A program made the translations under genes and the position numbers. The notes under the pieces are model-generated. The model ran no database searches and had not been told where the DNA came from. It was given only the letters and a program-made list of their open reading frames with translations. A DNA stretch of 64,000 nt from Candidatus Micrarchaeaceae archaeon (GTDB lineage: Archaea; Micrarchaeota; Micrarchaeia; Micrarchaeales; Micrarchaeaceae): the NCBI GenBank assembly GCA_050013715.1, contig JBEKES010000001.1, forward strand, positions 8,889 to 72,888, written 5' to 3'. This document shows, piece by piece, positions 31,278-55,440 of the stretch; positions within the stretch are counted from its first letter, which is position 1; every line of letters begins with the position of its first letter.

Positions 31278-31390
31278 TGGGCCTGGAGAGATTTGAACTC
31301 TCGACATCTGGCTTTCTTCTTGATAAAACTTCTTTTAAAGAAGTTCTCAATTATAAGACCAGCGCTCTGACCAGGCTGAGCTACAAGCCC
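31278..31390 (-). tRNA. tRNA-Ile, anticodon UAU, with a 38-nt intron at the canonical 37/38 position
   Basis: Hand fold: GGGCTTG TA GCTC AGCCTGGTCA GAGC G CTGGT CTTATA[38 nt]A GCCAG ATGTC GAGAG TTCAAAT CTCTC CAGGCCC A. The mature tRNA is 75 nt with no long variable arm, and a BHB-like fold is present. No CCA is encoded. Confidence 0.8.
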
Positions 31391-47542: not shown

Positions 47543-48322
47543 ATGCATAGATTAACCTCTGAAGATAAGAAGATAATCATCGAACCATATAAATCTGGAA
47601 ATAGTCTTGCAAAAATATCTAAATTAATCGGCAGAAGGAAAACTGTTATATATTATCATACAAGGAAACAGTTCGGCAGGAAATATAAACTAATAAAATT
47701 TAGAATTTCCTCATTTGAAGATTTAGGCGAGTTTTTAGGTGCATTTATAGGTGACGGTAACTTCTATCAAGAAAAAGACTTTAAATATAATATAAATTTT
47801 TATTTATCTATACACGAAACAAAGCATGCAAAGCACTTATCAAAGGTTATAAAAAGACTTTTCAGTAAAGAACCTAACCTATGGGTTTACACAAAAGGTA
47901 ACATCATTCGGTTAAAAATAATGGGGAAACAAGTATATATTAAACTAAAAGAGTATCTTGACTGGTCGAACGAAAAATATTATACAATTCATCTTAAATC
48001 CAATCTATTAAAACATCCCAACTATGATCTTCTTAAAGGAATCATTAAAGGTGAATTAGCCACAGACGGATCTGTTTATGTACCAAAAAATAGAATAGTA
48101 TTAGGTACCTGCTCAAAATTGCTTAGCGAGCAAAACAGAAGGATTTTGGAAATGTTTGAAATAAATCCATACACATATCCTGTATTCTCAAGCAAAAATA
48201 AACCATTTTATCACATGCACATAACAGGAATAGATAACGTCTCTAACTTCTATGAACGAATAGGTGTCACAGAACCATTACGTAAATCTAAGATAAAGTT
48301 AATATTAAAAAAGCGTCAGTGA
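47543..48322 (+). CDS. Free-standing double-motif LAGLIDADG homing-endonuclease-like protein with an N-terminal HTH
   Basis: LAGLIDADG motifs FLGAFIGDGNF and IIKGELATDGSVY lie about 100 aa apart. The N-terminal SLAKISKLIGRRKTVIYYH is HTH-like. The stop codon (48320-48322) lies inside the tRNA gene that starts at 48313. Confidence 0.8.
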   Translation: MHRLTSEDKKIIIEPYKSGNSLAKISKLIGRRKTVIYYHTRKQFGRKYKLIKFRISSFEDLGEFLGAFIGDGNFYQEKDFKYNINFYLSIHETKHAKHLSKVIKRLFSKEPNLWVYTKGNIIRLKIMGKQVYIKLKEYLDWSNEKYYTIHLKSNLLKHPNYDLLKGIIKGELATDGSVYVPKNRIVLGTCSKLLSEQNRRILEMFEINPYTYPVFSSKNKPFYHMHITGIDNVSNFYERIGVTEPLRKSKIKLILKKRQ

Positions 48323-48400
48323 TCCAATCTGGTTAAGATTCCAGCTTCCCATTTTTTAAGGAAAAAGCTGGTCATCCGGGTTCAAATCCCGGCTGACGCA
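48313..48400 (+). tRNA. tRNA-Gly (CCC) with a 14-nt intron at the canonical 37/38 position
   Basis: Hand fold: GCGTCAG TG ATCC AATCTGGTTA AGAT T CCAGC TTCCCA[TTTTTTAAGGAAAA]A GCTGG TCAT CCGGG TTCAAAT CCCGG CTGACGC A. UUCC (32-35) pairs with intron GGAA, leaving 3-nt bulges CA|U and AA|A, which is a BHB-like fold. Confidence 0.8.
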
Positions 48401-52455: not shown

Positions 52456-53625
52456 ATGACATTGCTGACAATTTTTGACAAGAGTGCTAAGAAAGCCTAT
52501 GTAATCGACCAATCATCTAAGGACATACTCAAGGGAAGCTTTTTCGGAACCATGGAAAAGGACAGGTTAATGTTGAAGATAGAGGAGCTTCTTTATTTAA
52601 TAGATGCAAGGCGCGCAAAATGCGTATCGCAGAATGACGAAGAGCTTACTTTCAATGACGTTGCGTTAGCATTTACCACAAACAAGAAGTTCATGGCAAG
52701 GTATTTCACATACAAGGACTGGAGGGACCGCGGATTGATAATAAAAGAGCCTGACAACTCTTCAAAGGAAAGCGGCAAATCACAAACACAAATTAAAAAA
52801 TATAATTCCCAGCAACTTAAGCTCAAGAATTATAATCTCAACGGAATATTCTTCACAGAGGATCTTACTACCGTAGTTGATAATGAGCAAAAGGGAAAAG
52901 AATTATACAACGATCATTGGTTTGGGCAGTACGGAACCTATAAGGTAAAAGAGCATGGGCAGCTCAACAAGCTTGACATTTACGAGACGTTATTCCTGAT
53001 AAACAACAACGTATTAAAAGTTTCAAACTTCACAAAAAAGCAAATAATTGAAATCGCAAGCAAAAGGCGCTCTGACTTCTACAAGCTTTATGAAGTTTAC
53101 GAAGACTGGAGAATCAAAGGATATGTGATAAAAACAGGATTCAAATTTGGAACGCATTTCAGGGTGTATTTTCCAGGAGCGCAGCCGAACAAGACAGACA
53201 ACTCATGGATACACTCAATGCATGTCATACATGTATTTCCAAGAGACACAAAATTGCTCATATCGGAATGGGCGCGTGTAATAAGAGTGGCACATTCCGT
53301 AAGAAAGACATTCATACTTGCAATACCTGGAAAGACAAGAAAGAAAAGGCTAGCAATTGATTTTGTTCTTTATCATAGGAAGAACAACGAGATAGAAAAC
53401 CCCGATAAGATAAAGCCACGATTTGGAATGCTTTCACTGAGCGAAGAGGAATATCTTGGGGGAAGTGAATTATCTGCCATAATAAATGAGGCGAAATCAA
53501 ACAGGCAAGAGTTAATAATCGCAATAGCTGACAGGGAAACTGCTGTTACCTATTACAAGGTAAAAAGAATAGAACTTCAGGGCAGCGATTATGAATACTA
53601 TGAAATAGACTGGCTGCAGCCTTAA
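52456..53625 (+). CDS. endA: tRNA-splicing endonuclease, long multi-unit form (389 aa)
   Basis: The catalytic unit reads GFKFGTHFRVY...HSMHVIHV...AHSVRKTF (Tyr/His/Lys). The pre-catalytic motif is duplicated as YFTYKDWRDRGLIIK (aa 83-97) and YEVYEDWRIKGYVIK (aa 212-226), and there is an extra ~90-aa C-terminal unit. Confidence 0.88.
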   Translation: MTLLTIFDKSAKKAYVIDQSSKDILKGSFFGTMEKDRLMLKIEELLYLIDARRAKCVSQNDEELTFNDVALAFTTNKKFMARYFTYKDWRDRGLIIKEPDNSSKESGKSQTQIKKYNSQQLKLKNYNLNGIFFTEDLTTVVDNEQKGKELYNDHWFGQYGTYKVKEHGQLNKLDIYETLFLINNNVLKVSNFTKKQIIEIASKRRSDFYKLYEVYEDWRIKGYVIKTGFKFGTHFRVYFPGAQPNKTDNSWIHSMHVIHVFPRDTKLLISEWARVIRVAHSVRKTFILAIPGKTRKKRLAIDFVLYHRKNNEIENPDKIKPRFGMLSLSEEEYLGGSELSAIINEAKSNRQELIIAIADRETAVTYYKVKRIELQGSDYEYYEIDWLQP

Positions 53626-55289: not shown

Positions 55290-55397
55290 CGGGTCCAGGG
55301 GGAATTTCCAAGCTTTTGATTGAATTCAAAAACCTATTTGAACCCCCGACCTACTGGTTAAGAGCCAGCCGCTCTGACCATGCTGAGCTATGGACCC
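55290..55397 (-). tRNA. tRNA-Lys (CUU) with a 33-nt intron in the T-loop (position 59/60)
   Basis: Hand fold: GGGTCCA TA GCTC AGCATGGTCA GAGC G GCTGG CTCTTAA CCAGT AGGTC GGGGG TTCAAA[33 nt]T CCCCC TGGACCC G. The mature tRNA is 75 nt. The intron forms a 10-bp hairpin flanked by 3-nt bulges. Confidence 0.8.
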
Positions 55398-55440
55398 AAA
55401 CAGAATAAATTATGTACAATAAGATTAATATAATAGTAAA

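Follow-up and report, generated by a model that had tools for sequence, protein, structure and literature searches.

A gene for tRNA-Lys(CUU) in a member of the Candidatus Micrarchaeota (family Micrarchaeaceae) is interrupted in the T-loop, between positions 59 and 60, by a 33-nt intron, and with a probability of about 90% it is a functional gene from whose transcript the intron is excised by an epsilon2-type tRNA splicing endonuclease (EndA). The genome is a metagenome-assembled genome (MAG) of approximately 1 Mb from peat metagenomes (0.98 Mb in 72 contigs, 38% G+C, 93% complete), and the 64,000-nt stretch of its DNA that was analysed is referred to as the window. The gene occupies 108 nt on the minus strand of the window, with exons of 61 and 14 nt, and is very probably functional, with splicing by the epsilon2 EndA encoded in its neighbourhood (Table 1).

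With the insert removed, the exons form a 75-nt product, as had been proposed in the preliminary description of this locus, and ARAGORN agrees that it is a canonical tRNA-Lys(CUU). The product has a 7-bp acceptor stem (GGGUCCA/UGGACCC), a D arm, the anticodon loop CUCUUAA, the variable loop AGGUC and the T stem GGGGG/CCCCC; in the gene, the T-loop reads UUCAAA, then 33 inserted bases, then U. The 5' exon reaches a length of 61 nt because the D-loop has two extra bases, and the discriminator base is G, with no CCA in the gene. An overlap with coding sequence is excluded, the gene being intergenic with no ORF of note across it. An A/T-rich stretch 27 to 36 nt upstream of tRNA position 1, with a similar one at equal distance in the same-genus orthologues, is a candidate TATA-box-like promoter element.

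Table 1. Features of the tRNA-Lys(CUU) locus and of other tRNA and splicing genes discussed in the text. Positions are those of the window unless a contig (C) or locus (L) is given; a slash within a bulge marks the predicted cut.
Feature	Position	Strand	Remark
Whole tRNA-Lys(CUU) gene	55290..55397	-	spliced form named tRNA-Lys(ctt) by ARAGORN
5' exon, tRNA positions 1-59	55337..55397	-	61 nt
Anticodon CUU	55360..55362	-	ARAGORN on spliced form
Intron, T-loop positions 59/60	55304..55336	-	33 nt; same site filled in orthologues
3' exon	55290..55303	-	U60, T-stem 3' strand, acceptor 3' strand, discriminator G
Central helix of bulge-helix-bulge (BHB), 5' strand	55339..55342	-	T-loop nt 54-57, UUCA
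Central helix of BHB, 3' strand	55306..55309	-	intron GGAA, pairs with UUCA
5' bulge AA/U	55336..55338	-	predicted cut after A59
3' bulge AU/U	55303..55305	-	predicted cut before U60
Intron hairpin (outer helix h')	55310..55335	-	10 bp and 6-nt loop AUUCAA
A/T-rich, TATA-box-like element	55424..55433	-	upstream sequences aligned at +1
Gene setting: DUF998 gene	end 55275	+	165-nt intergenic gap
Gene setting: HD-domain gene	end 55441	-	165-nt intergenic gap
Three-unit epsilon2-type tRNA splicing endonuclease	52456..53625	+	389 aa; 1.7 kb from tRNA-Lys(CUU)
tRNA-Ile(UAU) with canonical 37/38 intron	31278-31390	-	intron 38 nt
tRNA-Ala(GGC) with 59/60 intron	C3:4696-4807	-	loci L046-L049 set
tRNA-Arg(CCU) with 59/60 intron	C15:2064-2170	-	loci L046-L049 set
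tRNA-His(GUG) with 59/60 intron	C17:15594-15699	-	loci L046-L049 set
tRNA-Arg(UCG) with 59/60 intron	C25:14437-14547	-	loci L046-L049 set
Dubious ARAGORN calls in this genome (G000)	C11:9811-9924; C1:57201-57288 (window 48313-48400); C17:2178-2294; C2:24971-25111
tRNAs with C at T-loop position 55	L003, L006, L007, L012-L017, L019, L022, L023, L026, L027, L029; G000 C17		the G000 entry is tRNA-His

The expectation that standard annotation would overlook this gene was borne out: ARAGORN makes no call on the unspliced sequence, whether its intron option is on or off, and the Rfam tRNA model matches only the 5' part, giving it 26.5 bits where the cut-off is 29. Canonical introns at 37/38 are found by the standard tools, whereas the 59/60 intron here is missed. 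In their spliced forms, all 28 of the related T-loop-intron genes that were examined are tRNAs according to ARAGORN. Without intron-aware models, this genome seems to be devoid of tRNA-Lys(CUU), tRNA-His(GUG), tRNA-Arg(UCG) and tRNA-Ala(GGC) as well as of an Arg(CCU) gene, and such gaps would lead to false inference of decoding loss or of lower completeness in DPANN MAGs. ARAGORN also reports a tRNA-Pyl(cta), a tRNA-Phe(aaa), a tRNA-Ser(aga) and a second tRNA-Arg(cct) with a 68-nt intron, all probably mis-parsed intron-containing tRNAs.

In the predicted BHB motif, the central helix consists of the pairs U54-A, U55-A and C56-G followed by an A57.G mismatch. The pairing of T54-C56 with an intron AAG and one A.G mismatch, which had been found by hand folding, is exact on re-inspection, and the two 3-nt bulges at the junctions and the 10-bp hairpin with its 6-nt loop, described at the same time, all hold; two of the ten base pairs of the hairpin are G.U. 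The flanking helices of the motif are 5 and 10 bp long. A strict hBHBh' motif has a fully paired central helix of 4 bp, as several orthologues do, whereas the helix here has 3 bp and A57.G; in each 3-nt bulge the junction follows the second base, so that both junctions lie inside bulges, as in a relaxed BHB. The precursor has an RNAfold energy of -46.2 kcal/mol (z = -5.7), which 0 of 200 shuffled sequences equal. The ensemble probability of the central-helix pairs is approximately 3%, the BHB conformer is assigned -40.5 versus -42.4 for an otherwise identical fold without the central helix, and in the minimum-energy fold, which is without the central helix, the hairpin is lengthened by a U.G pair instead. 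RNAfold alone thus does not favour the 3-bp central helix, and therefore the term relaxed fits the motif; its description as a relaxed BHB at a non-canonical site is also supported by the relatives, with respect to both the 59/60 location and the motif.

Within tRNA-Lys(CUU) alone, positions 59/60 and 60/61 are indistinguishable, there being a U at each junction, such that the sequence of this gene would equally fit a real intron at 60/61 with an identical spliced product. This register is very unlikely to be the correct one. The introns of several relatives (G005, G006, G009, G010, G018, G019, G020 and G024) start with A or G, and because these relatives regain the U60 of all intronless orthologues only if the intron is placed at 59/60, the register is set there. 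With 59/60, moreover, each of the two 3-nt bulges is cut behind its second base, which is the symmetric geometry of BHB cleavage by archaeal EndA.

A DNA search found an orthologue of tRNA-Lys(CUU) in 40 of 40 relatives. An insert at the identical T-loop site is present in all ten same-genus genomes and in four further genera of the family; across these 14 genomes its length ranges from 14 to 44 nt and its sequence varies. The other members of the family and all 15 genomes of the sister family have an intronless gene with the T-loop UUCAAAU, UCCAAAU, UCCGAAU or UUCGAAU. Within the genus, the exons are on average 95% identical and the introns, which range from 22 to 44 nt, only 49%; the exons are 100% identical to those of the orthologue in G006, and the 5' exon is 95-97% identical to those of the other same-genus genomes.

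Pairing in the central helix was counted across the 28 T-loop-intron tRNAs by a script with a fixed register: 97 of 112 cells pair in register, compared with 82 and 57 of 112 after a slide of one base, and fewer still after further slides. Position 55 and its intron partner covary, being U-A in 20 of the 28 and C-G in seven. The test for covariation was made on a subset of 12 sequences with one common register, because a MAFFT alignment of all 28 T arms opened gaps inside the BHB. Of the cells in this alignment, 94.6% are paired, changes on both sides occur in four pairs, and slid registers score far lower; the covariation score is reached by 0 of 500 shuffles, a significance that is overstated because the 12 sequences share ancestry, and the comparison with slid registers is the safer control.

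These patterns bear on the possibility that the gene is a pseudogene, i.e. a tRNA-Lys killed by the 33-nt insertion, for example by integration of a mobile element of which a remnant is left in the T arm. Its rejection by standard detectors, the imperfect and thermodynamically weak central helix, and the failure to see spliced RNA in four sequencing runs would all be compatible with such a fate, which is nevertheless very improbable: the exons are strongly constrained while the insert drifts, 14 genomes preserve the site and, through compensatory changes, the BHB geometry, and inserts of this type occur in four further tRNA genes of the genome, those for Ala(GGC), Arg(CCU), Arg(UCG) and His(GUG). 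This is, moreover, the sole Lys(CUU) gene found, for a codon in heavy use, since AAG accounts in long ORFs for 45% of the codons for lysine and has a frequency of 36 per 1000. Another intact tRNA-Lys(CUU) had been named beforehand as a finding that would speak against a functional role of this locus; searches of the 93%-complete assembly with ARAGORN, Rfam and BLAST found none. The tRNA-Lys(UUU) gene (contig 7, 1597-1672) is intronless. In five other genomes of the genus (G003, G005, G007, G008 and G009; loci L033-L037), tRNA-Lys(UUU) has an intron of 40 to 44 nt at 59/60.

Four public sequencing runs were examined for RNA, three of which are metatranscriptomes and the fourth a run whose kind is not recorded. 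Four contigs from these runs map to the locus, all of them from relatives and all covering the 5' exon: two enter a different intron, one ends at the junction, and the fourth has the 3' exon directly behind the 5' exon, followed by a genomic trailer, and therefore derives from the gene of an intronless relative; a splice joint was seen in none of the four. Such RNA libraries capture short, modified tRNAs poorly, and therefore the result from the four runs speaks neither way on splicing.

Less probable still is retention of the insert, in which the mature tRNA would keep a 33-nt hairpin jutting from the T-loop. The self-contained hairpin that RNAfold places on an intact T stem is what such a molecule would look like, and the unspliced contigs from the RNA libraries of relatives would agree with it, these being equally explained by carry-over of DNA or by precursor. 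However, the contacts of the T-loop/D-loop elbow (T54-A58, G18-U55 and G19-C56), which are required by all elongator tRNAs, would be lost. The variation in the length of orthologous inserts and the many relatives without one also argue against retention, as does the placement of both junctions in BHB bulges, where a splicing endonuclease cuts. In ARMAN-2 (Candidatus Micrarchaeum acidiphilum), furthermore, the homologous enzyme removes a 59/60 T-loop insert in vitro (PMC3239211). On inspection by eye, the intron has no C/D boxes and at 33 nt is not long enough for a box C/D guide RNA, and its size also speaks against a group I or group II intron.

The catalytic domain of the endonuclease was searched for in the genome and matched by a single gene, that near tRNA-Lys(CUU). 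Its product contains two PF01974 stretches and PF02778 (the N-terminal domain) and aligns end to end with the epsilon2 EndA of ARMAN-2 (PDB 4FZ2; E = 3e-170, residues 1-389 on 1-387). It retains Tyr, His and Lys at positions 238, 253 and 284 and the loop Tyr-Lys at 162/163, which is +2 relative to ARMAN-2 numbering, and the motifs GTYKV, RVYFPG, WIHSMH and SVRKTF are at the expected positions with the same offset. The protein thus has the features of the epsilon2 class: a length of approximately 390 aa, three units (pseudo-catalytic, catalytic and structural), the catalytic triad and the ARMAN-specific loop. The genome accordingly encodes one of the EndA types, (alpha-beta)2 and epsilon2, that are fit for relaxed or non-canonical motifs. 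What the catalytic and loop residues do is known from mutagenesis and a co-crystal structure (PMC3488258, PMC12397907). Fujishima et al. (2011) reported that the tRNA genes of ARMAN-2 are heavily interrupted and that its epsilon2 EndA, as a recombinant enzyme, excises a 59/60 intron in vitro (PMC3239211), and Hirata et al. (2012) that the loop lysine is needed for cleavage of a 59/60 intron (PMC3488258).

The epsilon2 EndA is present at full length in 39 of the 41 genomes of the order that were searched, including those in which tRNA-Lys(CUU) is intronless, a distribution that fits the published idea of the broad-specificity enzyme having come first and the introns later. In nearly all genomes of the family, the EndA gene and tRNA-Lys(CUU) are 8 bp to approximately 2 kb apart; this proximity occurs also with intronless Lys(CUU) and may simply be conserved gene order. 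One genome of the genus, which is only 73% complete (G010), has its EndA match in three separate frames or ORFs of 332, 113 and 127 aa (C2:186416-187587), which could be due to frameshifts or assembly errors. Full-length three-unit relatives of EndA with approximately 40-46% identity are located on contigs labelled Aenigmatarchaeota and Nanoarchaeota (L105, L110 and L114-L129), and therefore the epsilon2 architecture is not limited to Micrarchaeota.

As for ligation of the exons, an archease gene was found in this genome. RtcB was not found in the assembly (93% complete, 72 contigs), which is taken to be an assembly gap, since nine of ten same-genus genomes possess RtcB. In four relatives (G004, G008, G026 and G032), the match to RtcB comes in two pieces (profile positions 1-50 or 1-67 and approximately 45-426) within one open frame of 971 to 1049 aa, which looks like an intein insertion.

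A pathway for expression of the gene may be proposed from its sequence and by analogy with ARMAN-2. Transcription would yield a pre-tRNA of approximately 108 nt plus leader and trailer, in which T-loop positions 54-56 and the 3' end of the intron, with the T stem below and the 10-bp hairpin above, form the relaxed BHB, as the sequence and its relatives show. By analogy with in vitro cleavage by the ARMAN-2 enzyme, the epsilon2 EndA, a predicted homodimer, would cut behind A59 in one 3-nt bulge and in front of U60 in the other. With a central helix as weak as this one (three pairs and A.G, with a probability of approximately 3%), recognition would have to rely on the tolerance of EndA for relaxed motifs. 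The exons would then be joined by an RtcB-type ligase with archease, the elbow between the T-loop and the D-loop could presumably form only after splicing, and CCA, because it is not encoded in the gene, would be added post-transcriptionally.

The intron of tRNA-Lys(CUU) is one of a family of mutually related 59/60 introns, which interrupt five or more tRNA genes in this genome. The five tRNAs found with a 59/60 intron are Lys(CUU), Ala(GGC), Arg(CCU), His(GUG) and Arg(UCG); the introns of the last four are 32 to 40 nt long and have a core in common with the Lys intron, including the sequence of its hairpin stem. ARAGORN found none of these four genes, and with the Rfam tRNA model three of the four are below the cut-off and tRNA-His(GUG) is unlisted. 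A scanner for T-arm inserts gave hundreds of false positives with permissive settings; with rules for the D arm, the acceptor stem and the central helix it gave 47 matches, of which five were true tRNAs. A covariance model of the T arm and intron recovers exactly five copies here and three to seven copies per genome in the genus, and it has matches in 28 of the 41 genomes of the order, the weaker matches being counted as scored.

The introns were compared without the part that is bound to pair with the T-loop. The Lys intron shares 83% identity with the Arg(UCG) intron of its own genome and at most 70% with the orthologous Lys(CUU) introns; Ala and Arg introns of different genomes are up to 91% identical, while shuffled introns used as controls reach 44% on average and 63% at the maximum. 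The non-Lys introns of other genomes were recruited by their likeness to the Lys gene or intron and are therefore a biased sample, whereas the five of this genome came from a search that used structure alone. The likeness of introns across tRNA genes suggests copying or conversion between genes. That the 59/60 introns of the Micrarchaeaceae are one mobile family, which spreads or is homogenised between tRNA genes at a single T-loop site, is a tentative proposal with slightly less than an even chance of being right; possible routes are a transposition-like copying or gene conversion via near-identical T arms. If true, this would be the first spread of tRNA introns outside the Thermoproteales, and one bound to a single site. 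The likeness of introns within one genome offers a small, testable handle on the spread of archaeal tRNA introns.

The closest known cases are the pre-tRNA-Cys(GCA) and pre-tRNA-Pro(GGG) of ARMAN-2, which belongs to the same phylum and has introns at the same 59/60 site that its epsilon2 EndA cleaves (PMC3239211, PMC3488258). Both there and here, a BHB-type motif is built on the T stem and an epsilon2 EndA is encoded; the tRNA differs, being Lys(CUU) in the present genome. The ARMAN-2 Cys intron is 13 nt long and of the hBH type with one bulge lost, whereas the Lys intron, with 33 nt, both bulges and an outer helix of 10 bp, is nearer to hBHBh' with one mismatch. Features of this kind have thus already been published, at this position, from this lineage and with this enzyme, and tRNA-Lys(CUU) is a further instance; an intron family common to several tRNAs at one site goes somewhat beyond the literature found. 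The 59/60 introns are thereby extended from one acid-mine ARMAN-2 genome to peat Micrarchaeota, and 59/60 is a recurrent, order-wide intron site.

Non-canonical tRNA introns are also known from the Thermoproteales (Crenarchaeota), in which transposition between tRNA genes has been proposed (Fujishima et al. 2010, as summarised in PMC4033280). Going by that summary, the two systems resemble each other in having relaxed BHB motifs at non-canonical sites and similar introns across different tRNA species of one genome, and differ in that the Thermoproteales have an (alpha-beta)2 EndA and introns at many sites, whereas the present case concerns a DPANN archaeon with an epsilon2 EndA and the single site 59/60. 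A comparison within the genome is provided by the canonical intron of tRNA-Ile(UAU), whose helices and 3-nt bulges are arranged alike and for which cleavage by the same enzyme is predicted, but which is situated in the anticodon loop rather than the T-loop. Its central helix (C32-G, U33-A, U34-A, then A35.G) has 3 bp and an A.G mismatch just as in tRNA-Lys(CUU), a construction that appears to be the usual style of this lineage.

T-loop position 55, near-universally U, is C in many of the tRNA-Lys(CUU) orthologues and in the tRNA-His of this genome, with the T-loops UCCAAAU and UCCGAAU, and in those C55 tRNAs that have an intron the partner base is changed from A to G. The tRNA-Cys(GCA) on contig 5 and the tRNA-Ala(CGC) on contig 9 of this genome have the T-loop UGCGAU.
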